Position numbers and translations under genes: made by a program
Notes under the pieces: model-generated
The model's database searches: none
Told to the model about the DNA's origin: nothing
Seen by the model: the letters and a program-made list of their open reading frames with translations, nothing else
Source of the DNA: a virus
Lineage: Duplodnaviria; Heunggongvirae; Uroviricota; Caudoviricetes
Strand: one strand, 5' to 3'
Virus record (IMG/VR): IMGVR_UViG_3300044620_000288
Location: 64,001 to 86,241 of that record
Length of the DNA stretch: 22,241 bases
Part shown: positions 1 to 19,553 of the stretch, piece after piece
Position numbering within the stretch: position 1 is the first letter of the stretch
Layout: each line of letters opens with the position of its first letter

Positions 1-3000
1 CAAGGAGGCTTTGCTACTAAACAAGAAGCAGAAGATTATTTAAAAGAAGTAGAAGAAAAGTTAGGGGTAGAAGATAAAATCAACGCTAAGTATGATGCAG
101 AACTAGCTGCTTTAGAAGGACAACCTGCTCCTACACCAGAAGCTCCTGTAAACTTGAATGCAGAGTTGGTAAAGACGTTAACAGAAGAAAGAGATCAAAA
201 GCTTTCAGATCTGATGCCTCTCTACGGTACGGCTAGAAAGACTATGATGCAACTAGGGGATGAGGCTTTAGATCTAGGAGACCGTAATATTTTAGCAGAT
301 CCTGTTAAGTATTTAGAAGGTCGCATTGCACAAGGGGAATATAGTTTACAGCAAAGTATAGATAGGTTAAAAGCACTTGATACTAATAATCCTGATAATG
401 CTAAGGAAGCTAAAAACTTACAACGTTATATTGATACAGAAAAAATTGTTTTAGGAAAGACATATCCTAAACTTGAACAGATAAAAGCTGTAGTAGCTGA
501 GTATAATGATAAGATGAGTAGAATAGGAGAAACTCCTACACCTGCTGCACAATCTTATGACAACAAAGGAACCACTGGGCCTAGCACAGACTTCCGTGTA
601 GTTGCTAAAGGTGAGCAGAAGGAAGACAAGATGGATGACCTAGACTTAGCTGAGTTTAAGAAATGGCATGCCGCTAATGTTCCTGGTATTCCTTACGAGA
701 TATTAGAAAACATTGTTCGTAGAAACCCAGACATTACAGCTTGGGGTGTATTTGAGAATGGTGTTGCTAAGTTCTACAGAAGTGCTACACGTGGTACAGA
801 ATATCATGAGGTGTTCGAGGGTATATGGAAAGGTTTTCTTTCTCCTGGTGAAAGACAAGACTTATTAAATGAGTTTAGAAGTCAAGCTGGTACCTTCAAA
901 GATAGAGCTAGTGGGCGTGATGTTGAATATGCTGCTGCTACAGATACAGAGGCTAAGGAAAGAATTGCTGATGACTTTGCTGATTTCAGAGTGGGTAAAC
1001 TTCCTGTTAGAAGCTTGGGTGACTTGATTATCAGATTCTTCAGATCTATCATGAACTTCTTTAAGAATTTCAATGCTAAACCTACACTTAAAAAACAATT
1101 GTTTGAAGCAATTGATTTAGGTAAGTTTAAGGAGAGTGTTCTTCCTGATACAGTGAAGAATGAGGCTGCTGCATATAGAGAGATTGAAGGACTGTCTGAA
1201 CAACAAGCTCAGAAGTTTGTAGAAGATATGACAGCAAGGGTTGCTGGTCTAGTCTTCCTCAAGGCAAAGAAGTATTTGTACACTCCTCAAAAGCTTACAA
1301 GTAAGCAAATCTTTGGAGAGATAGAAGAGATGTATCTAAGGGAAGGTCAAACTCCAGGATGGAATGGTGTAAACAAACGCACTAAGCTTGGAGATGGTCG
1401 CTGGGAAGCTCTTGTACAAAGAACAAAAGAAAAGCTACGCATACTAGGTGTTACATTTAACGAGGATGGTATAATCAAACTTAATGGAGAAGACACCAAT
1501 AAGAATGACTATGCTCCTGAGGCGTTCACTGTAGACATTAAGAAAGGTGCGTCGTTTGATGTTAAGTTTACACTTGCTACTCTGTTCAAGGCTAAGGCTA
1601 TGGACCAGAGCAATACACTGAACCTAGAAATGCCTGATGCTCAGATTGATGCAGAGGTATTAGGATATAAACTTCTCAACTTCAGTACAGCATTTGCTAC
1701 ACTGCTTGAGAGACTATCTAACACTAGTGGAGTGAACAACATGACAGACAAGCTATTAGAGCTTGCAGCAAATGATGCTGATTATGTTCGTATGTTTACA
1801 CGCCTAGGTGGTAAGAAAGACAAATCTATTCCATACAAAGACTTCAAGGCTGAGGACTGGAAGTTCTTCATTAGCTTCACACAAACCTTTACAAGACAGA
1901 GACCTGATGCAATGGTACAGCGTGTTGCTGGTGGTGAGACATTTACCACTCCTGCAAATGTACAAACTGCTGCTAGACAACAAGTTGACACATGGGTGAC
2001 CAACATGAAGGTGTTGTCTAGAACAAATAAAGGAGCTATTGTATACAATAGTGCTACACAAACTTATAAGGCTAATACAAAGAAGCTTAAGGATATGCCT
2101 ATTGGCACTTCTAAGCAGATGATAGAATTCCTAAATGAGATTGGTGTTACATTTGATTCAGACACATACAAGAAGCTAAAGAGCTATGGTGGAGATAAGA
2201 GTCAAAAGAATCAGTTTGCTGCTGCTGTAAAAGATATCCGTGCCTTCTTACAAGACACTGATGACCTTCTTACAGTGACTGGTCAAACTCTAGGCATCAC
2301 TACACAACTAAACACACTTGGTCGTCTATACATAAATGCAAACAATCCTAACCAAGACATCACATATTTTGGTATCGAGAGGAAGAGGATGCAAGCATAC
2401 ATTGATAACAACACTGCATCAGTGTTTGAGAATGAGTTTAATGAGGCTACCACTCTGGATGAGCTATTAGAAAAGCGTCCTGAGCTACAGGATATATTCT
2501 CCACTGGCGCTCAAATACTTAAGAAGGGTGGACTTTATTTTGACAAGGATGGTAACAGAATTAGAGAGATTAAAGTGATGACCATTCAGGGTGTAGAGAA
2601 TAGTGATGAGTCTAAGAGTAAAGGTATTTCTAGACTTGGTCTAGGAGAGCGTTTCTCTCTTGAAATAAATGAGAACCTAAACGGTAACTTCTATATTCTT
2701 ATTCCTGCAGATAGTTCTACAGAATGGATGATGAATGTTGGTAACCAAATCAGCTACCAAGAGTTTGCTGATGGTAAAGCCTGGAACAAAATCTATTCCA
2801 TCTACAAGGGTTATCTGATGGATGACATTGCTCTAGCACGTGATTTCAAGAATCGTGGTAAGCTGAACAATGTTAATGCAAGAGCTAAAGAGTTACGTTT
2901 CTTTAATGATATCCTTCGTCCTAAGACACTAGAGAAACTAAACAGCATGATAGCTGATAAGTCAGTTTCTATGGAGGAGATTGAGAAATATGTAAACGAG

Positions 3001-6000
3001 AACCAAGAATCAATCAACCAAGATGTTGCTGGTTTCTTAGAAGGTATTACAGACACTACATTTAACACTCTTAAAGACAATGATCAAATTGTTCCTATTC
3101 AGGAAGGTTGGACATGGGATAGTCTGGACAATACATTTGCTCGTAAGAACAATATTAATAAAACCAAACCTATCATAGAAGACGTTCTGAAGCAAGTGTT
3201 GCTATTCAGAACTGTTAACTATACAATCAATAACATTGAATATCACAAGATAATATTCGGTGACCCACTTCAGTTCTCTACAGAGAAGGGTAAGTTTGAT
3301 GAGACCAAGCGTATCAAGAGCTTCCTATCTCCACGTAGAACAACATTTGATGTTGCTGAATTTGATAACTTCTTAAATGACAATCTGAATGAGGTGGCTG
3401 GTATTGCACTTCAACCTCCTAAAGATGACAGACCTGCTGACCCTGGTTACCATAACCACAAAGCTTACACAAGAACTGTAACATTTGCAGATCCTAAAAT
3501 AGCTGGTGCATTAGCAAACATCATTCCTGCGTATGCAGACATTAAAGAAGCTGATGCTGCCTCTTGGTTAATGGATACAACATTCAGAGAGATTAAGAAT
3601 AAGAACGGTCAATGGACTGATGAGGCTGAAGATTTCCACCAATGGCAAATGGCTAACACAAGAAAGAAGCTGGCTGCTAAAGGTGAATACACATATGCTA
3701 GCTCTGAGCTAAAAGCGTATGATGAAAAGCTCACATCTACACCTTCTCCTAAATACACATTAGAGATATTGAAACCTATTGTGTCTGGTGTTAAATACAA
3801 CTCAAACAACATCAACCTGGTGCTAGACAAGTTCTCTCAGATGCCTATCTACTACAGTATGGTGGAAGGAACTACTCTAGAGAAGTTATATATACAGATG
3901 TGGAAACAAGGATATGGTTATGCAATTGTAGAATCAGGAAGAAAGGTGGGAGCTGAAGGCTTACATTCTATCTACAATCCTAATGGTACATTTAATGAGG
4001 AAGCATTTAACAACTTTGTTGATGTTCCTTGGAAAGCATACGGTATCCAGGTGGAGAATATATATGATGAGGGTAAAGAACAAACTCGTGGTTCTCAGTC
4101 TACCAAGTTGATTAGCATTGACTTATTTGCTAACGGTGAGGTGTTTGGAGCTACAGGTGCACGTGCTGAATACATTAAGAATCTATACAAGAAGAATGTT
4201 AAAGACCTAGACAGAATGCATGCCAATGCTTATAATAACCTACTTAAAAAGCTTGGTGTTGTAGACAATGGTCAAGGATTTACTCTTGAAGATAAACAAG
4301 CGTTGTCTGAAGTGTTAGTGTATGAGATGTTCCGTAGAGAGCTCTCTGAGAATGCTAAAGACACTGTTAGACTTAATGAGGAAGATGAGTTCAGAATTCC
4401 TTTTGAGGCATCTCCATCTTATGTACAAATCAGAAACATCATCTACTCAATGGTTGAGAAAGCTATTCTCTCTCCTAAGATGGGTGGTAAGCCATTAGTT
4501 CAGGCTCCTGTAACCATGTGGGAGAATGCTGAGAAAGGCAGAAGTCTGGTTCAAAAGACTAAAGATGGATGGAAGAAGATATCTAGAGAAGAGTATGAGG
4601 CACTAGAGGATAGTGAGAAGAAGAAGGTGCGCATGACTAGTGACACACTCAAGTTCTATACAAAAGATAAGCCATATATGGAAGTGATGCTTCCACATTG
4701 GTTTAAAGATAAGCTTGCTGCTAAGAAGTTTAAAACTGACCAGGAAATACTTGATTACATCAATAAAAGTCCTGACGGTGCTAAGATTCTTAGAGGTATT
4801 GGTTTCCGTATTCCTACACAGTCTTTGTCTTCAATAGACTCATTTAAGGTGGTAGGGTTCCTACCTCAATATATGGGAGATACTGTTATAGTTCCTACAG
4901 AACTAGTTACCAAGTCAGGATCTGACTTTGACATAGATAAACTCAATACCTATTTAAGAAACGTATATGTAGATGCTACAGGCAACCTTAGACTTGTTAA
5001 ATACAATGGTTCTGAAGAAGCTACAAAACAATTCTTTACAAAGGTGTATGAAGACACCATCCAAACTGAGATTGACAGAATAGATAAGTTTGAAGACTTC
5101 AGAGACAGAATGTTCTCTGTGTTGATAGATGTTGAGGACTTAACAGACTTCTCTTCAGAATCTGTAAACGCAGCAATAGATGAGCAAGATGTTGACTTCT
5201 TCTATGATAACTTAAACCTATTCAAAGAAATTATAAAGCAAGCTGCTGATGCAAATCTTCCTGCTAGTGAATACATTGCACAACAGGTTGAGAAGCTGGC
5301 AGATAAGAAAACCAAACTCACTAAGAAGATCTTTAACGAGAAGCTTAAGAATGAGTTTGTAGAAGATATGTATAAGCGCTCCCTCGAGAATGAATACTAT
5401 GATTCTTTTGAAGAGTTGCTTACACTTCCTGAGAACTTCAATCGTCTCATCAGCCCTGTGGGTGATGGTGGCTTGAAAGAAATTGCTACAGAGATTGAAG
5501 ACCTATTAGGTGAGAAAGAGGTTGATGTTAAGAACAAGATCATCAACCCTAACTACATGACCACTTTGAGACACGCCTTCATAACTGCTAAGGCATGGGT
5601 GGGTATTGGTGCTGTAAACATTACCAACCACTCTCTATCTCAGAAGGTTACAGTGATTATGGATCCTGAGAAGATAAAGAACTCTCCTGCATTTGACCAG
5701 AAGTTCTTAGGTGACGGTGGTATTCTACTACCTCACAACAAGGTGACTGTTAACGGTAAGGAGTACATATCTATGTCTGGTGTACTAGATGCAGATGGTA
5801 AACTTTACATCTCTGATGGTTTGTCTGGATATATTACATCATTTGTGGATGTGGCTAAAGATCCATACATCATGAAGGTGATTAGAAGTACAAAGGCTGT
5901 TGGTACATTTATGGTGATGCAAAGAATGGGTGTTCCTATTCGTACAGCAGCTCTGTTCATGAACCAACCTATCATCAGAAAATACTTAGAACTTGTAGAA

Positions 6001-8289
6001 GGAACAGGAGCTCGTGGATTATTTGGTCGCAAGAACATGTCTACTATCATGGACAGATTCCCTGTTAAAGAAGGAGATGTTGCAGAAGTGGCTGATACTA
6101 TTGATGTTGAAAATCTTGCAGAAAACATCCGTGAGTTTGCAGAAAAAGGAAAGCTGAGCACCCTCAAGAAGAATGCTGAGCAACAACTTATATTCCAACA
6201 GTTCTTGAGACTGGCTAAGATGGCTGATTACAACTTTAAGTTTACACAGGCTATCAACTATGACACTAGTAAGTTCAAGAGTGCAGATGCTTTAAGCAAG
6301 AAGGTTATGAAAACTGACCTGGCTGCAGAGAATAACATCTTCACATCTCCTACAGAGGTGCTTGATAACTCACACATTGGAAACCAGAAGAAAATCTTAG
6401 GATTGTCTGTGGATGCTACGGGTGCCATCTTTGTATTAGACCAAGACAGATTTAGAGCTATCACAGATAAGATACTTGATCAATACAAGCAAAGAGAGTT
6501 TATAGCTGAAGATGATTATGATCGTATCTCTAATAAGGTGAGAGCATCGTTCCTAGACTATGTTATACAAACTAGAACAGGACTGAACGCTTCTATCAAA
6601 CCTTTGTTGATTGATGCTAACACATCTGTAGCTACACGTCTAGCTGAAGCTAAGACATTGTATGCCAATGAGTTACCTATCCTTAGACAACTTGAGGTGA
6701 GATTTAATAGAGAGAACGGTATACACACAGTGATGCTAATGGCTAACGTAAAGGATGCTGCTAGTGAGAATATGTACATCGGTATGATGAGAGAGCTTAG
6801 AAACAATCCTAAGACTAACCAACTGTACAAAGATTTAGTTACACTTTCCATCCTTCAGGGTACATACCAAACAGGTGTGTCTATCAAGAACATTATTCCT
6901 ATTGAAGACTACAGTGCTGTTGTAGCTCCTGTAATTTCAGGCTTGAGAGTGACAGAAGATATGGATGCATTCGCTGAAGGAATGTTCCAGCGTAATAACT
7001 GGGATGATAACATGGTGTTCTATCCTTTGAATGAGGTGTTCTTTAGAACTCTTACAGTAGATCCTAGGTATCAAGACATTGCTGGTGAGGCTGTGTATGA
7101 ATACTTCTCTCCTGTTTTCCCAAATAATGATGCTTTAAAAATCAAATCTAGTCAAAGAATAATCTTATATTTGGACGAGAATTATGATAGTGAAGCAATT
7201 GGTAGCGGGGACTATGTAAAGATAAAGAGAGTGGTGGCTAATAAAAACGGTGGTGAACTTGTAGATGTTCTGAAGGGTGTGGGTCTTTCCAAAAAAGCAT
7301 ACGCGATAATGAAGAAAGCTGGTAATCCAATGATTACACAAGTACTTGGTTATCAGAAAGTTAAATACCCTGGAACAGATGTTCCTGTAACTGTAGGTGT
7401 AAAGAACTACAAAGGAGATATTGAAAACAAGTATGTATATAAACTCATCAACCTTTATGGTGAGGGTTCATTTGGCTCAGAGTATTACACAGACTTCAAA
7501 CCTTCTGTAGTGGATAACAACACTGTTACAATTAAGAATGAGATTCCTGATAGCGATATTGTAGCTGCTTTATCTCAGGATATTAAGGTGGATGATATTA
7601 TGCAACAGTCTGCTACACCTACAAATGATGTGAAAGTGGACATGGGAAGACAAGCTGAAATAGAACCTGGACTTGGGCTCACTAAAGAAAACTTTGAATT
7701 CCCTGAGGGTTATGATGAAGCCATGGCTGCAGCTGCTGTAACAGGTCTATCTTCTGAAACAAAGATTAACATCTATGCTGGTACAGGGGAGAATGCTGAG
7801 TTAAGTAACTTTGCTAAGAGACCTTTTATATTAGGAGATGATATAACATATCCTACAGTAGAACATGCTTTTCAATTAGAAAAATTACAATATAGCAATG
7901 CTTATACAGATGAGCAAAGGGAAGCCATAATAAGAGATATGATTACTAAATCTGCTGCACAAGTAAAAGCATTTGGTAAAACTATCAAAGGATTGAATGT
8001 AAAAATGTGGAATGAAGATGCTTCTGAAATAATGAAAGATTTAATAAAACAATCTTTTCAAGCAAACCCAGCAGCTCTTCAAAAATTATTGGCTACAGGA
8101 AATGCTGAACTTACCCATACACAAGATAATACTAAATGGGGTAAAGAGTTCCCTAAACTACTTATGGAGGTTAGAAAGGAGCTAAGACCTCAAGCACCTG
8201 CTAAACCTGAAGCAACTCAAATAGACTTGTTTGATACCAATGATGAAAACCTTGATGGGGCAGATGAATCTAACCCATGTAAACGATAA
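1..8289 (+). CDS. Giant virion-associated DNA-dependent RNA polymerase (phi14:2 gp66-like, two-barrel family), 5'-partial; zincin-like domain near N-terminus, NADAR domain at C-terminus
   Basis: Frame 1 is open from base 1 (QGGFATKQEAEDYLKEVEEKLGVEDKINAKYDAELAALEG...), so the TTG at 154 is probably not the true start. Motifs seen: GFRIPTQ (4801-4821), GDTVIVP..SGSDFDIDK (DFDID at 4924-4938), KEADAASW, LKPIVSG, ESGRKVG, GSQSTKL, VDVAKDP, FMNQPII. DFDID is the catalytic motif described for the crAss-like phi14:2 virion RNAP. Confidence 0.92.
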   Translation, partial: QGGFATKQEAEDYLKEVEEKLGVEDKINAKYDAELAALEGQPAPTPEAPVNLNAELVKTLTEERDQKLSDLMPLYGTARKTMMQLGDEALDLGDRNILADPVKYLEGRIAQGEYSLQQSIDRLKALDTNNPDNAKEAKNLQRYIDTEKIVLGKTYPKLEQIKAVVAEYNDKMSRIGETPTPAAQSYDNKGTTGPSTDFRVVAKGEQKEDKMDDLDLAEFKKWHAANVPGIPYEILENIVRRNPDITAWGVFENGVAKFYRSATRGTEYHEVFEGIWKGFLSPGERQDLLNEFRSQAGTFKDRASGRDVEYAAATDTEAKERIADDFADFRVGKLPVRSLGDLIIRFFRSIMNFFKNFNAKPTLKKQLFEAIDLGKFKESVLPDTVKNEAAAYREIEGLSEQQAQKFVEDMTARVAGLVFLKAKKYLYTPQKLTSKQIFGEIEEMYLREGQTPGWNGVNKRTKLGDGRWEALVQRTKEKLRILGVTFNEDGIIKLNGEDTNKNDYAPEAFTVDIKKGASFDVKFTLATLFKAKAMDQSNTLNLEMPDAQIDAEVLGYKLLNFSTAFATLLERLSNTSGVNNMTDKLLELAANDADYVRMFTRLGGKKDKSIPYKDFKAEDWKFFISFTQTFTRQRPDAMVQRVAGGETFTTPANVQTAARQQVDTWVTNMKVLSRTNKGAIVYNSATQTYKANTKKLKDMPIGTSKQMIEFLNEIGVTFDSDTYKKLKSYGGDKSQKNQFAAAVKDIRAFLQDTDDLLTVTGQTLGITTQLNTLGRLYINANNPNQDITYFGIERKRMQAYIDNNTASVFENEFNEATTLDELLEKRPELQDIFSTGAQILKKGGLYFDKDGNRIREIKVMTIQGVENSDESKSKGISRLGLGERFSLEINENLNGNFYILIPADSSTEWMMNVGNQISYQEFADGKAWNKIYSIYKGYLMDDIALARDFKNRGKLNNVNARAKELRFFNDILRPKTLEKLNSMIADKSVSMEEIEKYVNENQESINQDVAGFLEGITDTTFNTLKDNDQIVPIQEGWTWDSLDNTFARKNNINKTKPIIEDVLKQVLLFRTVNYTINNIEYHKIIFGDPLQFSTEKGKFDETKRIKSFLSPRRTTFDVAEFDNFLNDNLNEVAGIALQPPKDDRPADPGYHNHKAYTRTVTFADPKIAGALANIIPAYADIKEADAASWLMDTTFREIKNKNGQWTDEAEDFHQWQMANTRKKLAAKGEYTYASSELKAYDEKLTSTPSPKYTLEILKPIVSGVKYNSNNINLVLDKFSQMPIYYSMVEGTTLEKLYIQMWKQGYGYAIVESGRKVGAEGLHSIYNPNGTFNEEAFNNFVDVPWKAYGIQVENIYDEGKEQTRGSQSTKLISIDLFANGEVFGATGARAEYIKNLYKKNVKDLDRMHANAYNNLLKKLGVVDNGQGFTLEDKQALSEVLVYEMFRRELSENAKDTVRLNEEDEFRIPFEASPSYVQIRNIIYSMVEKAILSPKMGGKPLVQAPVTMWENAEKGRSLVQKTKDGWKKISREEYEALEDSEKKKVRMTSDTLKFYTKDKPYMEVMLPHWFKDKLAAKKFKTDQEILDYINKSPDGAKILRGIGFRIPTQSLSSIDSFKVVGFLPQYMGDTVIVPTELVTKSGSDFDIDKLNTYLRNVYVDATGNLRLVKYNGSEEATKQFFTKVYEDTIQTEIDRIDKFEDFRDRMFSVLIDVEDLTDFSSESVNAAIDEQDVDFFYDNLNLFKEIIKQAADANLPASEYIAQQVEKLADKKTKLTKKIFNEKLKNEFVEDMYKRSLENEYYDSFEELLTLPENFNRLISPVGDGGLKEIATEIEDLLGEKEVDVKNKIINPNYMTTLRHAFITAKAWVGIGAVNITNHSLSQKVTVIMDPEKIKNSPAFDQKFLGDGGILLPHNKVTVNGKEYISMSGVLDADGKLYISDGLSGYITSFVDVAKDPYIMKVIRSTKAVGTFMVMQRMGVPIRTAALFMNQPIIRKYLELVEGTGARGLFGRKNMSTIMDRFPVKEGDVAEVADTIDVENLAENIREFAEKGKLSTLKKNAEQQLIFQQFLRLAKMADYNFKFTQAINYDTSKFKSADALSKKVMKTDLAAENNIFTSPTEVLDNSHIGNQKKILGLSVDATGAIFVLDQDRFRAITDKILDQYKQREFIAEDDYDRISNKVRASFLDYVIQTRTGLNASIKPLLIDANTSVATRLAEAKTLYANELPILRQLEVRFNRENGIHTVMLMANVKDAASENMYIGMMRELRNNPKTNQLYKDLVTLSILQGTYQTGVSIKNIIPIEDYSAVVAPVISGLRVTEDMDAFAEGMFQRNNWDDNMVFYPLNEVFFRTLTVDPRYQDIAGEAVYEYFSPVFPNNDALKIKSSQRIILYLDENYDSEAIGSGDYVKIKRVVANKNGGELVDVLKGVGLSKKAYAIMKKAGNPMITQVLGYQKVKYPGTDVPVTVGVKNYKGDIENKYVYKLINLYGEGSFGSEYYTDFKPSVVDNNTVTIKNEIPDSDIVAALSQDIKVDDIMQQSATPTNDVKVDMGRQAEIEPGLGLTKENFEFPEGYDEAMAAAAVTGLSSETKINIYAGTGENAELSNFAKRPFILGDDITYPTVEHAFQLEKLQYSNAYTDEQREAIIRDMITKSAAQVKAFGKTIKGLNVKMWNEDASEIMKDLIKQSFQANPAALQKLLATGNAELTHTQDNTKWGKEFPKLLMEVRKELRPQAPAKPEATQIDLFDTNDENLDGADESNPCKR
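640..1100 (+). other. Degenerate zincin-like (HExxH-derived) domain within the RNAP protein; boundaries approximate
   Basis: TAWGVFENGVAKFYRSATRGTEYHEVFEGIW (HEVFE at 805-819, second His replaced by Glu), followed by AKERIADDF at the usual EExxAxxF position. Confidence 0.65.
4924..4938 (+). other. RNAP catalytic DxDxD motif (DFDID)
   Basis: gac ttt gac ata gat, in frame, downstream of RIPTQ. Confidence 0.92.
7762..8187 (+). other. NADAR (YbiA/DUF1768-like) domain at the RNAP C-terminus
   Basis: Motifs appear in NADAR order: LSNF..PF, YPTVEHAFQLEK (E at 7861, K at 7882), W....IMKDLI...F.ANP...KLLATGNAEL, DNTKWG, LLMEVRKELR. Confidence 0.85.
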
Positions 8290-8294
8290 TTAAT

Positions 8295-11200
8295 ATGGCG
8301 TGTAAAGTTAAATATGTAGAACAAGAGTATAGGAAGAACTATCCTGAACTGGCTGATAAACTTAATCAGAAGTATACAGACATTTGGAAGGATATTACCG
8401 ACTCTAATCTATTTAGAAAGTATGGTGATGGTCCAACGGCTACTTATTTGCTTTCCAAAGCTGGCACTGAACAGCAACAGAAGCAGGTTAACTTTATTGC
8501 CAAACTGAATGAGAAGTATGAAACTCCTCAGGGCAAGTCAATTATACAAGGTGCTCCTACAAAGGCTGGGAACAATACAAAGATATTAGTGAATGTCCAT
8601 CCTCTGGCACAAGGAGAGTGGAGCAAGCTACAAAAACCTGAACAGGGAACATTGTTCCAATTGCGTGGTGGTACCATGGGATCTAATGCATCTCCTAAGA
8701 CCATTGCAATGATTAAGGACTTCCTTACACGCATTGGTGTTAGCACTAAGAATGTTAATGGTATTGTAGTGAATGGTGTTCAGATGAATGCAAACGCTGC
8801 AGCCATTGTAACACAGAAGCTTATTCAGGTGGTGAATGGCATGGAAGCTAGAGCTCTTCCTGAGGAAGCTATGCACTTTGCTGTAGAAATCATCAAGCAA
8901 ACTAATCCCAAGCTTTACCAAAAACTACTTAACGAAATCAATAGCTACCAAATACTAAGAGATACATTTGCTGAGTATAGCAACAATCCTCTTTATCAAA
9001 CAGAAGATGGTAGACCTGATGTATTGAAAATCAAAGATGAGGCTATTGCCAAGGTGCTTTCTGAAACAATCATCTATCAAGGTGAGAACAATAAAGAAAG
9101 TATGGAGAAACTTGCTAAGGTGCAGACCTGGTGGGGACAAATGTTGGAATGGCTCAAAGGTCTGTTCTCTAGAAGTGGATTTGATCAAGCAGCTATGGAC
9201 ATCATCTCTGGAAAAGAAATTGGTACAGCTGATGACATCCGTGCTAATGAGAATGAGATATTCTTACAGCAGTCTAAACAAGAACAGATATTTAATACCA
9301 TTAAGTCTGGCTCTATGGCTGTTGAAAAGCGTGGAGATGGTTACTATGTAAATGGTAAGAAAGTTCCTAAACGTGTAACAGATCTTGTTAATGACTGGTA
9401 TGAGCGTAGGTTTAGAGAGAAGAAACTAACAGACAGTGAGTTCCAGAAGGCTATTGACTCAATGAAAGCTGACAAGGGTACAGCTGGACATATTGATTTG
9501 GAGGAAGCATTTAAAGTGTATGTAGATCCTCAGACAGGACTAATGAGACCTGAGCCTTTAAATGATGATGCTTACGTATCTCAGCTTAACAAAGATGACC
9601 GTAAATATTACATCACTCTAAGAGATAATCTTAAGAAGCGTTTGGACTCATTTGGTCCTAATGCAAGATTCCTTGCTGAAGCTATAGTGTATGATGCTAA
9701 GAGACCGGGGGGTGGTATTGCTGGTACAATTGACTTCATAGCTATTACAGAAGATGGTAAAGTGAACATGCTTGACTGGAAGTTTACCAACCTCAATACA
9801 AATAAGTATGATGATATTCCTTGGTATAAAGTGAACGCATGGCGTACACAGATGAACCAGTACAAGTTAATCCTCAAGACAGCATATGGTATTAAGGAAG
9901 ATCAGTTTGATCAAACCAGAATGATTCCTATACAGGCTATCTACACAGAGGCTGATTATAAAAAAGAAATCTTACCACGCCTATCTGGTATTAAAATAGG
10001 AGATGTAGATATAAAGAACATCGAGGAAGACTATTTACTTCCTGTTGGTCTAGAGGAAGAAGTTACAGGAGAAGAAGAACTAGATGACTTGTTGGCTAAG
10101 CTCAACCGCATCTACAAAAGAATGTCTGAGAAAAAGGCAACACCTGGTGAAAAACTTACTAAGGCTGAACAACTTAACTCTTTGTACACAGCTATTCGTC
10201 ACCTTCAGATGAGAAGAGATGCTAAGTCTCTTGTATACCAAGCTCGTCTTATCAACAAACAAATTGAGGACATATTCACAAAGTTTGAAGATAAGTTTAA
10301 AGGTAAAGATCCATTAAGCTTTACAGAGAAAGAGCGTAGTGATTTTACAAAAGAAATGGCAGATGGACTAGAAGCACTAGAAACATATGCTGATTTGGCT
10401 ACAGATCTTGACTTCTTGTTCAGAGGTGAGCTTGATAAAGCTACAGAAGATGTTAAGAGTGAAATATACAAAGCTAGTTCTGCAGCTAAACTATTGAGAT
10501 CTAGATTGTTGAAACTGGACAAGTCTTTCACTAATGACTTCATTGCCCTATCTGAAAAAGTGAAAGGAGCTAAAGAAGGAGAGAAAACTGTTACAGGTGC
10601 AACTAAGTGGTTTAGTAGTACAGCCACCTTGCAGATTAAAGCTGCACAGGTGTTATTCAGAAAAGCTAACCGTGCCTTCACTTATGCAGGTATGGACACA
10701 GCTGCAGAAAGTAGAAGACTTGCTGAGATAAAAACCAAATATGATGCTTGGGCTAAAGGAAAAGGTCTAACATCCAATAACTACTTTGACATCATTAGAA
10801 AGAAAGCTGATTCATATCAGAAGGAAGCAGATGCTCGTAAGAAAGCTGAGATGGAAGAGCTAAACAAAATGAAGCCTGAAATCTCTGAGGAATCATACAA
10901 GCAAGAAGTTGAGAAGATTAATCAGCGTTATGAGAATGCTATCAAGGATAAGAACCAATTGATTGATGAGTTTGATCCTCAGTTCTATTCAAAACTCAAC
11001 TCTGCTATAGCCCAGAAGGACTATGCATGGATTAGAGATAATATAGATAAAGCTGAATATGCTGAGCACTTACGTAAGAAACTAGATGAAGAAGAGCAAC
11101 GCATATTTGATAAACCTCGTATTGGTACAGAGGAAGACATTGCTAATCAGATCAAGACAGAACTGAGAAAAGCAAAAGAACTATACAACATTACTACAGA

Positions 11201-13889: not shown

Positions 13890-16800
13890 ATGAACGTACT
13901 TCCTAACATACTACAGTATGGAAGTAGTGGCACATCTGGTACTTCAGGTGTGTCACAGGCTTCTGACTGCGTAGATAATTTACCAGTTTATATAAATCCA
14001 GTAGTGGCTTCCGTAGAGCCACCACCTAGTGAATTATCATCTAGTCAGCCCTCCTTTTTGTCTAGACTATATGGTAGGGCTCCTGTTCAGGAGACTCCTC
14101 CTATTATTATTAGTGAGCCACTCATCTATGTGGCTCCTGCTCCAATCGATCCAAACAATAATCAAAGCTTTTTATCTAAGCTCCTTGGTGGAGACTGTAG
14201 AAATACGTCTTTCACAAACAGCCCTGTCATATGTTCTGCTGATGCCTGTCCTATTATATTAGACGCCACTTGTGTGTTCTATGAAGGATACAATCTCATC
14301 TATACAGGGATTAGTGCTAATGACAACCTTCAGACAGCTCTTGAGAAGATAGAGGAAACCTTTGCCAATAGTTTGGCAGGAAGCTCTGGTACGTCTGGCA
14401 CCTCAGGTAGTTCAGGTACATCTGGCAGTTCTGGGACTGCTGGAACAACAGGTACTTCAGGTACAACTGGTACAAGCGGAACCTCAGGAACCACAGGTAC
14501 AAGTGGAAGTTCTGGGACTAGTGGCACTACTGGGACCAGTGGTACAACGGGTACATCAGGTACAACTGGCACTAGCGGTACGTCAGGTACTAGCGCTACA
14601 TCTGGTACATCAGGCACTGCAGGAACTAGTGGCACCTCAGGTACTACGGGTACAAGTGGTACATCAGCTACTGATGGTACAGGAGGTACGAGTGGTACGT
14701 CTGGTACAGATGGAACTTCTGGCTCAAGTGGAAGTTCTGGTACATCGGGCACTTCAGGAACCACTGGAACAAGTGGTACAACTGGCACCTCAGGAACGAG
14801 TGGTACTGCTGGCTCTTCAGGTACTAGCGGTACAACAGGAACGAGTGGTAGTTCAGGTAGTACAGGAACATCAGGGACATCTGGCACTACAGGTACTAGT
14901 GGTACGTCTGGCTCTAGTGCTACAGACGGAACAGGGGGTACATCAGGTACTTCAGGTACGTCAGCAACTAGCGGATCAAGTGGGACAACAGGAACCTCAG
15001 GAAGCTCAGGTACTGCAGGTACTTCTGCAACTAGTGGAAGTTCAGGCACTTCTGGAACATCAGGTACTGACGGAACAGGAGGATCAAGTGGTACTTCTGG
15101 CACTTCTTCTACCTCAGGAACATCAGGAAGTTCTGGAACTGATGGATCAGAAGGAACATCTGGTACAAGTGGTACGAGTGCCACAAGTGGTACTTCTGGA
15201 TCTACAGGGACCTCTGGAACGAGCGGTAGCACAGGAACATCAGGTAGTAGCGGTACAAGTGGCACCTCTGCAACAGATGGCACTGGTGGTACATCAGGAA
15301 CAAGTGCAACGAGCGGAACCAGTGGAACCAGTGCTACATCAGGTACGTCTGGTACAGCAGGGACAACAGGTACATCTGGATCTTCAGGTTTGAGTGGTGA
15401 TAGATTTGCCACAACATCAACATCAACATATACATTAGGAGCTGTAGGTTCTTCAGGAACTATTACAGTGGGAACAGGACTAGCATACACTGTGGCCCAA
15501 TCTATCATTATTGCCTACGATGCTAATAATCACGTAGAAGCTGAGGTGACTTCATACAACCCATCGACTGGCTCATTGAGCTTTACTGTATTTAGACTTA
15601 CAGGGTCTGGTACATACAGTCTTTTCCAAGTGAATCTAGATGGTGCAACAGGTGGTGATGGTTCTAGTGGATCATCAGGCACTAGTGGTACGTCCGCAAC
15701 AGCTGGTACCTCTGGTACAACAGGTACATCGGGTTCAAGTGGCACGTCTGCCACATCAGGAAGTTCAGGTACCACTGGCACAAGTGGAACAGGTGGAACT
15801 TCTGGAACCAGCGGCACTACAGGCACATCTGGCTCAAGCGGAAGTAGTGGATCTTCAGGAAGTAGTGGCTCTAGTGGAACCTCTGCCACCTCTGGTACAA
15901 GTGGAACATCTGGAACAAACGGTAGTGGAGGCACTAGTGGAACAAGTGGGTCATCTGGTAGCTCAGGATCGTCTGGTACAGCTGGTACAGCAGGTAGTCC
16001 TGGTACGTCTGGAACTAGTGGTAGTTCTGGAACAGGAGGATCGTCTGGTACATCAGCAACCTCTGGAACATCAGGTTCAAGCGGAACCTCAGGTAGTAGT
16101 GGTACTACGGGAACTTCTGGTACCACGGGAACGTCTGGTACTAGTGGTACCTCAGGAGCAACTCAAGCTTTCTCTAATGTTCTAACTATGAACAGTGGTG
16201 GAGCTGGAGATGCTTCAGGAACAACATATAATGGTTCTGCTTCTAGAACTCTTTCTTATAATACAATAGGTGCTGCAGCTTCTGCTAATTTTAAAGTATT
16301 AGGAGCAAATGTTAATTATGATGTAAATAGATCAATAAAAACATCAGGTGGGGGTCTTGCTATATATTCAGGATATTCTACAGGTACTAACAGACCAACT
16401 ACATATGATATTTCTGCTCAATTTGCTGCAACAAATGATATAGCTTTTGAGATAGCTGCCGATTGGTTAAGCGGTTCAGGACCTACACTTTATGCTAGAT
16501 CTCTTCGTGACTGTTGTCAGGATTGGTCGTCTTGGGTAACTATTCTTACTTCTTTAAATTACAATTCCTATTCACCAACGTTAACAGGTGGTGGAGCTTC
16601 AGGAACATGGGGCATCAATATTACAGGTAACGCTGAAACTGTAGATGGATTTAGTGCATCTCAGTCTACTATTGCAAATGGAATTGTAGTAAGAGACCCT
16701 AGCGGATATATCTTTGGTAGCTATATCAACATGACTGATGACGGTAATCCGGGAGGAGGTACATCAATCACTTCATTTATTACTAAGCAAGGAGATAATT

Positions 16801-19553
16801 ACTACCGTTCAGTATCTCCAACTAACGCAATGGTCTCTATAAGAGGAGTTGCTAGTGGAACTTGGGGAATTAATATTTCTGGTAATGCTGCTACTTCAGA
16901 TAGAGTAAATGAGGTAAGTGAAACTAATTTGAACACTGCATTTACTAACACACCAGCAGGTCAATTATCGTGGACTGAGAATTACAACCAGACAAATGCA
17001 CCAACACCAAATACATATTACAATACTATCTCTATGAGGCATAGTAATCCTAGTAATGTATATGGGAATCAGTTAGCAATTCGTTGGGTAGATTCTGAGC
17101 CAAATACCTATGTTAGAGTTGTAAATAATGGGTCTTTTGGTCCGTGGAGAACAATTTTAGCTGATTTTAATTATAATTCTTATGCTCCAACATTAACAGG
17201 CGGTGGAGCATCAGGTACTTGGGGAATTAATATTACAGGAACAGCAGGATCCGAAACTTTAAATACCGTAACAAGTAGAGGAGCTACTACATCAAATGCT
17301 GTTACAGTAGGATTATTAATAGCTCAAGGTCCCGGAGGGAACTACAATGAAAATGTTAGACTTCCGGGTTCAACTGCTGTAATATCATTTAATACAAGTG
17401 GAGCTACCGGTGCAGGTAGCTATAATATAGTTTCTCAAACTAACTTTCAAATAAGAAATGCTGTTGGTACTCAAGTGTTTGTAATGGACCAATCAGGTAA
17501 TCTTACTATGACAGGGAACATTAGTGGTAATTATATTTTGGGAACATATTTTAATGCTTCTTTAGGTAACTCTGAGAATCCTACTATTGGTCAAATATGG
17601 ACACAAAATACGACTGATAACTATTTAAGAAAATCAACGCCTGCTCATTTTAGAAGTCAAATAACAGATGGAGTGTATGTGTACACGAGAGGTCAATCAA
17701 ACTGGAATGATAGCACTGTTATTAATAATGTTGTAGGTTTATTAGCATGGAAAAACTATGGCAATGCACACGTTATATTTGATGCTTCTCAAGGAACTTC
17801 TCCAAGTGGTGGTGGTGTAAGTCAAACTAATGCTACAAATGCTTGGAGTGCTTCTTACCCAACATTAATGGGATGGAATGGTAGTCAAACATATGGAGTA
17901 AGAGTAGATAGTGCTAGAGTAGCTGATAGTGCTACACTTGCACCTGCATATTTACCATTAGCAGGTGGTACATTAACAGGACCTCTCACGATAGGTACTA
18001 CTGTGAATTCAGTGATTTGGAATGACGGTACTGGCACCTACATGGAAAATACGGGTAATAGTGCAGCAACCAGAGTTATTAGATTACAGGCTCATAATGG
18101 AAGCTTTAGTTACACTCAACTATTTGTTAATGGTGGTGGTGGATATGTAGAAGTTAATAACCAAATGCGTGCTCCAATCTACTATGACTCTCAAGATACA
18201 ACATATTATCTAGACCCTAATAGTACAGGACTTTCTCTTTCAAGTAATGGTATAGTTTCTTCAGGGGTAGGAACTTCTGGAGGATTTCAAAACAGGGTAT
18301 ATACATCAGGAAGAAATAGAATTTGGAGTTTTGGTAATGCTGATGGCTACGGTATAAGCTATTTTCAAGGTGGTCCAGATTATATTGGTTTGCACGTTTC
18401 TGGCAGTCCTACGCAAGCTGGTTCAGATTTTTGGGTAAGTTCTACTGGTATTGCTCAAGCATCAGGAAGTATGAGGGCTCCTATATTCTATGATTCTAAT
18501 GATACCTCTTACTATGTAGATCCTAATAGTGAATCTAATCTATATAGATTTACAGCAGCGTCTATGACAAGAAATGCTATTAACTATCTTAGTATTAATT
18601 CACCTTTCACTACAAGAGCAGCTCAAACAAGACCATATCAAAACGGAACAATGGGCTGGGGAACTGTTGATTTTAATGCTGTGTTTTCTAACTGGGGCTC
18701 AGGTTTTATTGATACTTGGAGTAATCCAGCAAATGCTCCCGGAGGTTCAAGTCACTATGTTGGATTTAATGCAATGCATTATAATTTTGAAAATAATTCT
18801 CAAGGATATGGATTCCAAATGGCTTGTGCTGGAGAAGCAGCAAATAGATATTTTTGGAGAAATGGATGGCCTAATTTAAATGGTTGGGTGGAAATGTACC
18901 ATACTGGTAACTTTAATCCGGGAAGCTATTTACCACTATCTGGGGGTACTATGACTGGTGCTATCACAACACCTACGGGAACTTCAATGTATATTGGCGG
19001 ACAAAATGTTACCACAAGTGCTAGACTTATTATTAACTGGCATACAGACTCAGATTATAATTATCTAATAGGTAAAAGAGCAGGATCATGGACTCAACCT
19101 ATGGATATTTCTTTCTATACAGGTTTAAGATATCATGCACACCAAGCATATAATGGTCATATATTTTACGTTACTGGTTATGATGGTACAGAAGCTTTTT
19201 CTATAGGAAAAGGTGATGCTAATGTAAGAGTTGTTAACAATATTTATGCTTCTTCTTTTTTTGAAACTTCAGACAAAAGACTTAAAGAACTTGTTCAAGA
19301 CAATTACTCTGTAGAGGGTATTCATCTTGTTAAGCCAAAACTTTATATTAAAAATGGTAAAGAAGAAGTAGGATATTATGCTCAAGATTTTCAAGAGATT
19401 CTTCCTGTTGCTATTGCTACAGAGTTGAATGGATATTTAAACCTTTCATACACTCAGGTTCACACAGTTAAGATTGCGCATCTTGAAGATTCTGTTGAAG
19501 AAATAAAAGCAAAAATTTTATATTTAGAAAATCAATTAAAACAAAAACAATGA
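13890..19553 (+). CDS. Long fibre / receptor-binding protein (1887 aa): Cys docking domain, Gly-X-Y Ser/Thr collagen-like stalk, several knob-like modules, C-terminal peptidase S74 intramolecular chaperone
   Basis: G-X-Y blocks at 14379-15404 and 15642-16163. Repeated GTWGINI(T/S)G, RAPI(Y/F)YDS.D..YY.DPNS and YLPL.GGT.TG linkers. Knob-type ends WSSWVTIL, FGPWRTIL and NGWVEMYHTGNFNP. SDKRLK is followed by a terminal coiled coil. Confidence 0.88.
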   Translation: MNVLPNILQYGSSGTSGTSGVSQASDCVDNLPVYINPVVASVEPPPSELSSSQPSFLSRLYGRAPVQETPPIIISEPLIYVAPAPIDPNNNQSFLSKLLGGDCRNTSFTNSPVICSADACPIILDATCVFYEGYNLIYTGISANDNLQTALEKIEETFANSLAGSSGTSGTSGSSGTSGSSGTAGTTGTSGTTGTSGTSGTTGTSGSSGTSGTTGTSGTTGTSGTTGTSGTSGTSATSGTSGTAGTSGTSGTTGTSGTSATDGTGGTSGTSGTDGTSGSSGSSGTSGTSGTTGTSGTTGTSGTSGTAGSSGTSGTTGTSGSSGSTGTSGTSGTTGTSGTSGSSATDGTGGTSGTSGTSATSGSSGTTGTSGSSGTAGTSATSGSSGTSGTSGTDGTGGSSGTSGTSSTSGTSGSSGTDGSEGTSGTSGTSATSGTSGSTGTSGTSGSTGTSGSSGTSGTSATDGTGGTSGTSATSGTSGTSATSGTSGTAGTTGTSGSSGLSGDRFATTSTSTYTLGAVGSSGTITVGTGLAYTVAQSIIIAYDANNHVEAEVTSYNPSTGSLSFTVFRLTGSGTYSLFQVNLDGATGGDGSSGSSGTSGTSATAGTSGTTGTSGSSGTSATSGSSGTTGTSGTGGTSGTSGTTGTSGSSGSSGSSGSSGSSGTSATSGTSGTSGTNGSGGTSGTSGSSGSSGSSGTAGTAGSPGTSGTSGSSGTGGSSGTSATSGTSGSSGTSGSSGTTGTSGTTGTSGTSGTSGATQAFSNVLTMNSGGAGDASGTTYNGSASRTLSYNTIGAAASANFKVLGANVNYDVNRSIKTSGGGLAIYSGYSTGTNRPTTYDISAQFAATNDIAFEIAADWLSGSGPTLYARSLRDCCQDWSSWVTILTSLNYNSYSPTLTGGGASGTWGINITGNAETVDGFSASQSTIANGIVVRDPSGYIFGSYINMTDDGNPGGGTSITSFITKQGDNYYRSVSPTNAMVSIRGVASGTWGINISGNAATSDRVNEVSETNLNTAFTNTPAGQLSWTENYNQTNAPTPNTYYNTISMRHSNPSNVYGNQLAIRWVDSEPNTYVRVVNNGSFGPWRTILADFNYNSYAPTLTGGGASGTWGINITGTAGSETLNTVTSRGATTSNAVTVGLLIAQGPGGNYNENVRLPGSTAVISFNTSGATGAGSYNIVSQTNFQIRNAVGTQVFVMDQSGNLTMTGNISGNYILGTYFNASLGNSENPTIGQIWTQNTTDNYLRKSTPAHFRSQITDGVYVYTRGQSNWNDSTVINNVVGLLAWKNYGNAHVIFDASQGTSPSGGGVSQTNATNAWSASYPTLMGWNGSQTYGVRVDSARVADSATLAPAYLPLAGGTLTGPLTIGTTVNSVIWNDGTGTYMENTGNSAATRVIRLQAHNGSFSYTQLFVNGGGGYVEVNNQMRAPIYYDSQDTTYYLDPNSTGLSLSSNGIVSSGVGTSGGFQNRVYTSGRNRIWSFGNADGYGISYFQGGPDYIGLHVSGSPTQAGSDFWVSSTGIAQASGSMRAPIFYDSNDTSYYVDPNSESNLYRFTAASMTRNAINYLSINSPFTTRAAQTRPYQNGTMGWGTVDFNAVFSNWGSGFIDTWSNPANAPGGSSHYVGFNAMHYNFENNSQGYGFQMACAGEAANRYFWRNGWPNLNGWVEMYHTGNFNPGSYLPLSGGTMTGAITTPTGTSMYIGGQNVTTSARLIINWHTDSDYNYLIGKRAGSWTQPMDISFYTGLRYHAHQAYNGHIFYVTGYDGTEAFSIGKGDANVRVVNNIYASSFFETSDKRLKELVQDNYSVEGIHLVKPKLYIKNGKEEVGYYAQDFQEILPVAIATELNGYLNLSYTQVHTVKIAHLEDSVEEIKAKILYLENQLKQKQ
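14379..15404 (+). repeat. Collagen-like triplet block 1 (114 in-register triplets, mainly GTS/GSS/GTT/GTA)
   Basis: Register is unbroken from Gly 14379 to Gly 15396 (1017 nt = 113 x 9). Occasional Ala or Ser sits at the Gly position. Codons are synonymously varied. Confidence 0.9.
15405..15641 (+). other. Small beta-rich globular domain interrupting the collagen-like stalk
   Basis: About 79 aa of non-repetitive sequence (TITVGTGLAYTVAQSIIIAYD...VTSYNPSTGSL...GSGTYSLFQVNLD) between the two triplet blocks. Confidence 0.7.
15642..16163 (+). repeat. Collagen-like triplet block 2 (58 triplets)
   Basis: Runs GAT-GGD-GSS...GTS-GAT and contains the single Pro of the two blocks (GSP). Confidence 0.9.
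16533..17246 (+). repeat. Dispersed direct repeats in the fibre: W.TIL...NYNSY.PTLTGGGASGTWGINITG.A at 16533-16634 and 17145-17246, with a partial copy at 16851-16889
   Basis: The two full copies are nearly identical at protein level, 612 bp apart, and clearly similar at DNA level. Confidence 0.85.
18165..18530 (+). repeat. Direct repeat MRAPI(Y/F)YDS.DT.YY.DPNS at 18165-18224 and 18471-18530
   Basis: Two 20-aa copies 306 bp apart. Confidence 0.85.
19269..19553 (+). other. Peptidase S74 intramolecular chaperone (autocleavage) domain
   Basis: S-D-x-R-x-K (Ser 19269, Lys 19284), G..AQD...ILP, L.LSY and a terminal heptad coiled coil. Confidence 0.88.

Follow-up and report, generated by a model that had tools for sequence, protein, structure and literature searches.

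A mobile NADAR cassette on a giant crAss-type RNA polymerase and its possible role in early counter-defence

The window analysed here is a 22,241-nt stretch of a Caudoviricetes genome (positions 64,001–86,241 of IMG/VR record IMGVR_UViG_3300044620_000288). Positions 7756–8196 of the window encode a true NADAR domain with a bare, YbiA-like core, which lies near the C-terminus of a giant polymerase related to the virion RNA polymerases (RNAPs) of crAss-type phages. The domain is carried by a mobile accessory cassette (7641–8214) placed just ahead of a conserved C-terminal tail. We propose, at roughly even odds (a probability of about 0.5), that it is an early-acting de-ADP-ribosylase, that is, a counter-defence effector whose substrates are nucleic-acid bases.

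Translation of 7762–8187 gives 142 stop-free residues, which match the Pfam NADAR family (PF08719) with an E-value of 3e-15. The score, 57.2 bits, exceeds the gathering threshold of 35.1, and a scan of the whole record returned NADAR at 53.5 bits. An AlphaFold2 model of window 7699–8232 (178 residues, with 60 homologues as input) reached a mean predicted local distance difference test (pLDDT) score of 90.1, with values above 90 across residues 20–160 and below 70 in the first ~20 residues, which belong to the linker. When aligned with VIA-align, model residues 17–166 cover the ADP-ribose-bound NADAR of Phytophthora nicotianae (8BAU) with Z 17.1 and a root-mean-square deviation of 2.5 Å over 146 residues. 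The scores against E. coli YbiA (2B3W) and the DarT1-linked Geobacter NADAR (8BAT) were Z 15.2 and 9.5, and the best unrelated structure after the NADARs scored Z 3.3. The five-helix core flanked by small sheets superposes on the solved NADARs, and the N-terminal extension is missing. Given the Pfam score, the model confidence and the structural matches, the domain is genuine and not a chance match, in agreement with the original prediction of a NADAR domain at 7762–8187.

Placement of the domain among the NADARs rests on profile, hhalign and structural scores. The best PDB sequence match is YbiA (E 6e-9), to which hhalign gives 98.7% (E 2e-16) over the full length, compared with 78.9% over 54 columns only for gp30.3. 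The gp30.3/AdfN family profile PF08010 scored 17.4 bits against a threshold of 36, and was also matched by 22 of 74 members of the clade described below at E < 1e-3. No NCBIfam family scored above its cut-off for the NADAR domain. PHROGs returned matches solely to families of unknown function, and PADLOC returned only a candidate-system YbiA-like model (PDC-M42C, 34.6 bits) that is uninformative on function. The YbiA match, together with a weak match to TIGR02464 (the NCBIfam family of riboflavin-intermediate N-glycosidases), might be taken to mean that the domain is a housekeeping enzyme of YbiA type that detoxifies riboflavin intermediates. The TIGR02464 score, however, is 49.5 bits against a cut-off of 73.7, where E. 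coli YbiA itself reaches 169.5, and the Glu that defines the YbiA type is absent. Furthermore, the clade is phage-restricted and polymerase-fused, and its presence or absence among near-identical phages is unlike a metabolic need. A housekeeping role is therefore extremely improbable, and the reading as an ordinary YbiA riboflavin enzyme is rejected on these four observations.

The residues expected of a NADAR active site are largely in place (numbering is counted from window 7699, i.e. that of the 178-residue model). E55, in the VEH motif at 7861–7863, is the counterpart of E43 in the P. nicotianae enzyme and E88 in E. coli C7 NADAR, and K62, in the QLEK motif at 7882–7884, is that of K50 and K95, respectively. 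The two lie seven residues apart in a segment that reads VEHAFQLEK, and in the E. coli C7 enzyme both counterparts, E88 and K95, serve in catalysis (PMC11543638). The pyrophosphate contacts W89, D130 and W133, as aligned to 8BAU, correspond to Trp104 (8008–8010) and to D143 and W147 of a D-N-T-K-W loop at 8125–8139 (Asp at 8125, Trp at 8137) that is one residue longer, while R79 is replaced by Lys or Arg. E55, Q59, K62, W104 and H140 are invariant in both a 60-homologue and a 74-homologue set (44–88% identical to the window domain), and D143 and W147 are nearly so in the former.

The third catalytic residue is different. An acid in the last β-strand splits the NADAR subfamilies, being Glu in the YbiA/generic group, Asp in DarT1-linked enzymes and His in the phage gp30.3 group, and the Glu-to-His change is typical of AdfN-like NADARs (PMC11257639; PMC11125620). 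The corresponding strand reads L-T-H and has no acidic residue under any alignment; both the YbiA-type Glu and the DarT1-linked Asp are absent, and the AdfN-type His is present. The phmmer alignment sets His140 (8116–8118) opposite E125 of 8BAU, whereas hhalign and MAFFT pair Thr139 with the YbiA Glu and His140 with the His that comes after it. The acid-position equivalent is thus His140 or Thr139, with an ambiguity of one residue. As the strands are in register from a conserved Leu (L-K-H in T4 gp30.3, L-T-H here, L-V-E in YbiA, L-Y-E in 8BAU), His140 is favoured.

These results bear on the claim that the motif set is complete. The Glu, the Lys and the DxxWG motif in its DNTKWG form are where they had been placed, but the family-defining acid of the last strand is missing and an invariant His stands there instead. 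Even so, the invariance of Glu, Lys, His and Trp over a clade of at least 176 clusters (50% identity) argues for an active site that has been maintained.

The carrier ORF (open reading frame) spans window 1–8289 and is open from base 1, giving the C-terminal 2,762 codons of a protein of ~4,480–4,530 residues. In the whole 86-kb record the same frame is open over 4,477 codons, and a near-identical full-length protein, P0004, has 4,530 residues. The polymerase core at 3460–5994 is homologous to phi14:2 gp66 (PDB 6VR4; phmmer E 5.1e-26). ORF residues 1154–1998 (845 residues) align to 6VR4 chain residues 946–1674, the GSDFDIDK segment included, and the DFDID metal-binding motif of two-barrel RNAPs (4924–4938; residue 1642 of P0002) is aligned to that of 6VR4. 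Pfam recognised nothing but NADAR on the 4,530-residue protein, so this copy offers no protease or other enzyme that could be named.

In phi14:2, gp66 is a virion component that must enter with the DNA and transcribes the early genes, and it transcribes single-stranded DNA (ssDNA) far better than duplex (Drobysheva et al.). Mass spectrometry of crAss001 virions likewise identified three polymerase-associated giants as capsid cargo. The original prediction had put the domain on a virion RNAP; the homology to 6VR4 bears this out, virion status itself being a homology call. By the same analogy, we infer that the polymerase is packaged and that NADAR is retained in the chain.

The ORF ends in a conserved acidic tail (8215–8289) that finishes NPCKR before the stop codon, with a Cys codon at 8278–8280. 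This tail is kept behind three different cassettes and in relatives that have no cassette. A Cys lies within the last 6 residues of 120 of 120 listed orthologues, even where the rest of the tail is unrelated, and in P0004 it is third from the end and the only Cys among 4,530 residues. Given this conservation, the C-terminus may act through covalent or redox chemistry, for example in tethering, packaging or processing.

The boundaries of the cassette follow from comparison with a near-identical relative that is missing it (contig L041, encoding P0005). By blastn, window 6900–7640 and 8215–9000 are 97.2% and 97.7% identical to this contig, and between them lie 25 nt in L041 and 574 nt here, which places the insertion at 7641–8214. 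Its first part (7641–7755) encodes an Ala/Gly/Glu-rich linker, confirming the low-complexity linker predicted ahead of the domain; the block is shared with P0008, which holds another cassette. Five NADAR-less relatives (P0005, P0006, P0007, P0013 and P0014) have tails 82–96% identical, and in these the body end, ...TPTNDVKVD, is followed by a short acidic linker and then by the same C-terminal tail, ...DENLDGADESNPCKR. Others carry unrelated, unnamed inserts of ~150 amino acids at the same site (P0008, P0009 and P0012; also P0010/P0011 and P0016), and relatives with different cassettes are 75–96% identical over the P0004 C-terminal tail.

The centre of the cassette has a history of its own. 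P0003 has a polymerase body identical to that of P0004, yet only the ends of its NADAR are identical and the middle has diverged. At the DNA level, identity to L040 falls to 42–72% at 7814–8095, with 95–100% on either flank. Third-position GC content (GC3) is 0.14 at 7801–8100, and that of the NADAR core, 0.192, is below the lowest value among 438-nt windows along the polymerase body, which reach down to 0.205 around a mean of 0.346 (sd 0.048). With its mosaic, low-GC3 character, the central segment looks recently imported. A counter-defence module would be expected to come and go, and the gain and loss of the cassette fits such a module.

The other occupants of this slot (the C-terminal ~150–200 amino acids) have no Pfam match, and one that begins YKDAEKRIRLEYP recurs in three relatives; these alternative cassettes are candidate unknown effectors. 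The same polymerase has a second cassette site upstream of the window (P0004 residues ~1600–1793), whose right flank is window 1–120. At this site P0010 has an ART-PolyVal domain (ART, ADP-ribosyltransferase; 34 bits, residues 1638–1721), and P0004 and others have unrelated inserts between the same flanks. A megablast search of window 5000–9000 against 50,697 phage records gave no match.

The position of the cassette bears on whether the domain is delivered at all. It may be cleaved off in maturation, may act late in the producing cell (e.g. by cleaning progeny DNA before packaging), or may have drifted to a non-catalytic role in structure or packaging. Polyprotein processing has been proposed for this group and a zincin protease is encoded beside gp66 (Drobysheva et al.); flexible linkers flank the domain on both sides, and the canonical third catalytic acid is absent. 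Against this, Glu, Lys, His and Trp are invariant over the at least 176 clusters, an alignment of 60 relatives has no conserved cleavage motif flanking the domain, and in every case the cassette lies inside the chain, followed by a tail and Cys kept in 120 of 120 orthologues. As the cassette always precedes the conserved tail and Cys, retention in the mature chain is the simpler reading, and we consider non-delivery distinctly unlikely.

To follow the domain across its carriers, a search with the polymerase core returned 1,633 orthologues, mostly of 3,800–4,800 residues. The original prediction had called for a survey of presence and absence among orthologous RNAPs; here NADAR is carried by 11 of 121 listed orthologues (~9%), always 900–1,150 residues past DFDID. 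A profile-free, exhaustive search of 1.84 billion cluster representatives (50% identity clusters) gave 1,374 hits to the NADAR clade, 176 of them at E < 1e-30. Among the best 150 hits, 74 are proteins of at least 1,500 residues, and 66 of these 74 have detectable homology to the polymerase body. NADAR is at the C-terminal end in most of the 74 giants and far upstream of the DFDID motif in about a dozen, a variation in position that indicates repeated insertion. The short hits lie nearly all on 1–3 kb contigs and are probably fragments of giants. Named Crassvirales with the domain inside giants are cr126_1, cr130_1, cr131_1 and cr272_1, and database annotations mark “DUF1768” on such giants. 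In 185,579 species genomes only 8 clade loci were present, all on contigs of metagenome-assembled genomes (MAGs) with mutually inconsistent taxonomy. The clade is therefore essentially phage-restricted and almost confined to crAss-type polymerase giants.

Several members of the clade depart from this pattern in detail. In three Oafivirinae (cr131_1, cr272_1 and cr130_1; loci L002, L003 and L004) the NADAR-bearing giants contain in-frame stops, one of them at the invariant Gln position (AF*AAK). Stop-codon reassignment is known in the Oafivirinae, which these stops fit and because of which standard ORF calls fragment the genes. Three Bacteroidota-labelled MAG contigs (L012–L014) encode a variant with LTHHQ...AW in place of LTHTQD..KW, at the C-terminus of a 510-amino-acid protein with 335 residues N-terminal to it. 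In a partial protein from a Bacteroidota MAG (P0288), the C-terminal end of an adenosine-deaminase domain is joined directly to a clade NADAR.

The neighbours of the domain within the 74 giants are mostly conflict and nucleic-acid enzymes of the kind found in polyvalent proteins. Within 300 residues of NADAR there are cpYpsA SLOG (6 giants), DUF7831 (5), ART-PolyVal (5), superfamily 1 (SF1) helicase (4) and RNase H (3) domains, and one each of an AlkB-like oxygenase, Kinase-PolyVal, a 3'-5' exonuclease and a SprT-like domain. Among the orthologues, too, NADAR is paired with an AlkB-like or a SLOG domain, the latter in P0048. This set is the repertoire of polyvalent proteins, and the polymerase resembles them also in having two cassette sites and orthologues with ART-PolyVal, Kinase-PolyVal, SLOG, AlkB-like, SF1 helicase and RNase H domains.

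The recurrence of ART-PolyVal raises the question of whether NADAR serves as the eraser for a phage-borne ART, of the same or a co-infecting phage, and so shields DNA, RNA or polymerase of the phage itself, much as the antitoxin does in a toxin-antitoxin pair. Such partnerships are established (DarT1–NADAR, YarT–YbiA), and the close relative P0010 has ART-PolyVal at the second cassette site. ART-PolyVal lies within 300 residues of NADAR in 5 of the 74 giants and is found in 1 of 110 NADAR-less orthologues (Fisher p = 0.04, the two samples having been drawn differently). In the 86-kb phage record, which is 75% complete, there was no match to DarT (PF14487) and none to ART-PolyVal, although for the latter the control also matched nowhere. 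Moreover, each occurs without the other, the ART in P0010 and NADAR in the window protein, which means that the two are not obligate partners. A toxin-antitoxin role of this kind thus appears improbable.

Our preferred reading, that of an early de-ADP-ribosylase acting on bases, combines the maintained active site, the gain and loss of the cassette, a carrier that would enter with the genome and work on an ssDNA template, and the nucleic-acid enzymes next to the domain. The polymerase would be packaged with NADAR still attached, or freed inside the capsid, and ejected ahead of or with the DNA, like phi14:2 gp66 and the crAss001 cargo. The enzyme would thus be present before the expression of any phage gene. 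NADAR would then act on phage ssDNA or nascent early RNA, hydrolysing the N-glycosidic bond that joins ADP-ribose to guanine or possibly to cytosine. Marks set by a host ADP-ribosyltransferase defence, at which the polymerase would otherwise stall, would thereby be erased. The tether to the polymerase may give a proximity to nucleic acid that the bare, non-basic core cannot. The cassette would be one of several swappable effectors of polyvalent polymerases, alongside ART-PolyVal, SLOG, AlkB-like, SF1 helicase and RNase H domains.

This chemistry has precedent. All four NADAR families strip ADP-ribose from guanine (guanine-ADPr) in ssDNA and RNA, the generic and YbiA types also act on cytosine, and none acts on thymine. 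T4 AdfN (gp30.3) removes ADP-ribose from phage DNA in vivo and is the only phage NADAR with a demonstrated ability to defeat DarTG1 (PMC11257639).

Which host enzyme would be countered is a separate matter. The original prediction saw the domain as a possible pre-loaded antidote to DNA ADP-ribosylation defence, with DarT1 as the system to test. In favour of this are the two universally conserved catalytic residues, the homology of the carrier to the phi14:2 virion polymerase, the gain and loss of the cassette and the His-for-acid substitution shared with T4 AdfN. The further idea that the domain tracks along the genome and cleans the template is appealing but hypothetical. The choice of DarT1 as the target fares worse. 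We surveyed 401 genomes belonging to the same phylum as one Bacteroidota-labelled MAG; Bacteroidota was assumed as the host phylum from crAss biology and the three Bacteroidota-labelled MAG contigs. DarT occurred in 34 of the 401 genomes and NADAR in 34, but never the two on neighbouring coordinates, and none of 24 DarT loci contained an ORF matched by a home-made NADAR hidden Markov model. The DarT partners in these 24 loci are ~350 amino acids long, and all 5 that were scanned with Pfam are macrodomains, while the size of the ORF was the sole criterion for the rest; the sixth ORF scanned, a neighbour that is not a partner, is a MarC membrane protein. A macrodomain partner marks the DarTG2 type, which is specific for thymine and whose lesions none of the NADARs tested can reverse. 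Since the inspected partners look macrodomain-type and no NADAR lies near DarT, DarT1 appears an unlikely target, with the survey being indicative only, and the enzyme countered would probably not be canonical DarT1.

A more specific version of the proposal can also be put forward. The C-terminal slot might be a dedicated bay for swappable effectors, and NADAR, tethered to a polymerase that reads ssDNA, might perform transcription-coupled removal of base-linked ADP-ribose where the polymerase stalls, against a Bacteroidota ART defence that is neither DarT1 nor DarT2. We offer this as a speculative and unlikely extension; if true, it would be a phage analogue of transcription-coupled repair.

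Several observations weigh against a base-directed de-ADP-ribosylase. The third catalytic acid is missing, mutation of this acid abolishes the activity of E. coli C7 NADAR and SCO5665, and the only precedent for a working His form is AdfN. By overall similarity the domain is closer to YbiA-like or generic NADARs than to AdfN or the DarT1-linked type. It has no basic N-terminal β-β-α extension, its core has an isoelectric point of 5.1–7.0, and the fold is preceded by a disordered linker; with a core that is bare and non-basic, any affinity for DNA would need to be supplied by the polymerase. Canonical DarTG1 was not found in the 401 sampled genomes of the assumed host phylum. The cleavage of fused polymerase polyproteins proposed by Drobysheva et al. 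might remove the domain before packaging. Finally, on contextual grounds Iyer et al. 2022 (PMC9503650) argue for soluble ADP-ribose derivatives as the main targets of phage NADARs.

The last point leads to the alternative that an injected NADAR destroys soluble ADP-ribose-derived molecules (immune second messengers such as cyclic ADP-ribose isomers or His-ADP-ribose, toxic ADP-ribose phosphates, or breakdown products of NAD caps), and so silences TIR/Thoeris-like or SLOG-linked defence at the start of infection. Iyer et al. 2022 propose soluble targets for phage NADAR, Macro, SLOG and Nudix domains, describe them as often virion-packaged, and note that SLOG combines with NADAR. Here, cpYpsA SLOG is found beside NADAR in 6 of the 74 giants and in P0048. 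The bare, non-basic core without a DNA-binding extension also speaks for this alternative, as does the failure to find DarTG1 in the sampled phylum. On the other hand, cleavage of an immune signal is not known for any NADAR, whereas each one tested cleaves guanine-ADPr on DNA and RNA. The fusion to a polymerase and the AlkB-like, RNase H, exonuclease and SF1 helicase neighbours point to nucleic acid, and a diffusible target gives no obvious reason for a tether. We regard the soluble-signal explanation as rather unlikely and continue to favour a nucleic-acid substrate.

The third giant ORF of the window (13890–19550) lies downstream of the polymerase. Six stretches of it are collagen-like repeats (162 bits to Pfam Collagen), and its C-terminus weakly matches Peptidase_S74, the endosialidase chaperone, as expected for a self-cleaving tail fibre.

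Crassvirales are among the commonest phages of guts and many waters, yet hardly anything is known of the means by which they counter host defences. Were the cassette delivered with the polymerase, the first enzyme on the incoming genome would also bear anti-immunity tools, swapped like alleles among near-identical phages. Natural phages with and without it would offer a simple system for studying counter-defence that operates at the protein level and before gene expression. It would also indicate that nucleic-acid ADP-ribosylation or ADP-ribose signalling is a significant defence in Bacteroidota, with enzymes that are apparently not DarT1. The His-type site would provide a second lineage, beside T4 AdfN, for how NADAR specificity arises.

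The chemistry of NADARs, counter-defence by AdfN, polyvalent proteins and the idea of a packaged NADAR are already published. No paper pairing NADAR with crAss-type phages was found in the searchable literature. What is added at this locus is the precise limits of the indel, the mosaic centre with its low GC3, the third active-site residue of His type and the negative DarT1 survey.

Among known systems, T4 gp30.3 (AdfN; PMC11257639; PMC11125620) shares with the window domain a bare core that keeps Glu and Lys and has His for the acid. It probably acts at the start of infection against nucleic-acid ADP-ribosylation, as we propose here. AdfN, however, is a free-standing 152-amino-acid product of an early gene, while the window domain sits in a homologue of virion polymerases. 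Sequence likeness between the two is weak (PF08010 at 17 bits against 36; hhalign 79% over 54 columns), and the D..WG loop kept by the window domain is missing in AdfN. AdfN is also tuned to hydroxymethyl-cytosine DNA and DarT1, neither of which is evident for the window phage.

The NADARs associated with DarT1 (DarG1; E. coli C7 and the G. lovleyi structure 8BAT) have the same fold, the same Glu/Lys pair and the same proposed chemistry, the removal of guanine N2-ADPr from ssDNA. Their third residue is Asp, where the window domain has His. They further differ in a basic β-β-α extension that forms a DNA groove, which the window domain lacks (structural match only Z 9.5), and in adjoining DarT, whereas the window domain has no adjacent DarT and is internal to a polymerase gene.

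For the carrier, the closest comparison is phi14:2 gp66. Both have the homologous two-barrel core with DFDID and stand in a giant-gene block beside tail-fibre genes, and the window polymerase should likewise be packaged and ejected and then transcribe the early genes. Yet gp66 has 2,180 residues and no NADAR, whereas the window protein, with roughly double that length, has two cassette sites or more.

Polyvalent proteins (Iyer et al. 2017, PMC5512222) are likewise giant, multidomain and codelivered with DNA, with interchangeable conflict enzymes, of which ART-PolyVal and Kinase-PolyVal also occur in orthologues of the window polymerase. That account lists no NADAR and does not mention crAss. 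The later one (Iyer et al. 2022, PMC9503650) proposes virion packaging of NADARs, but its viral NADARs are typically standalone and concentrated in myoviruses, and the term crAss is absent. In contrast to both, the carrier here is the transcribing enzyme itself. The replicase polyproteins of nidoviruses and other RNA viruses with NADAR or Macro domains also place an ADP-ribose-removing domain in a polymerase polypeptide (PMC9503650), and matches of the window domain in BFVD include nido-like replicases. Those belong to eukaryotic viruses and contain an RNA-dependent polymerase made after entry, whereas the window enzyme is DNA-dependent and, as we propose, would be packaged beforehand.

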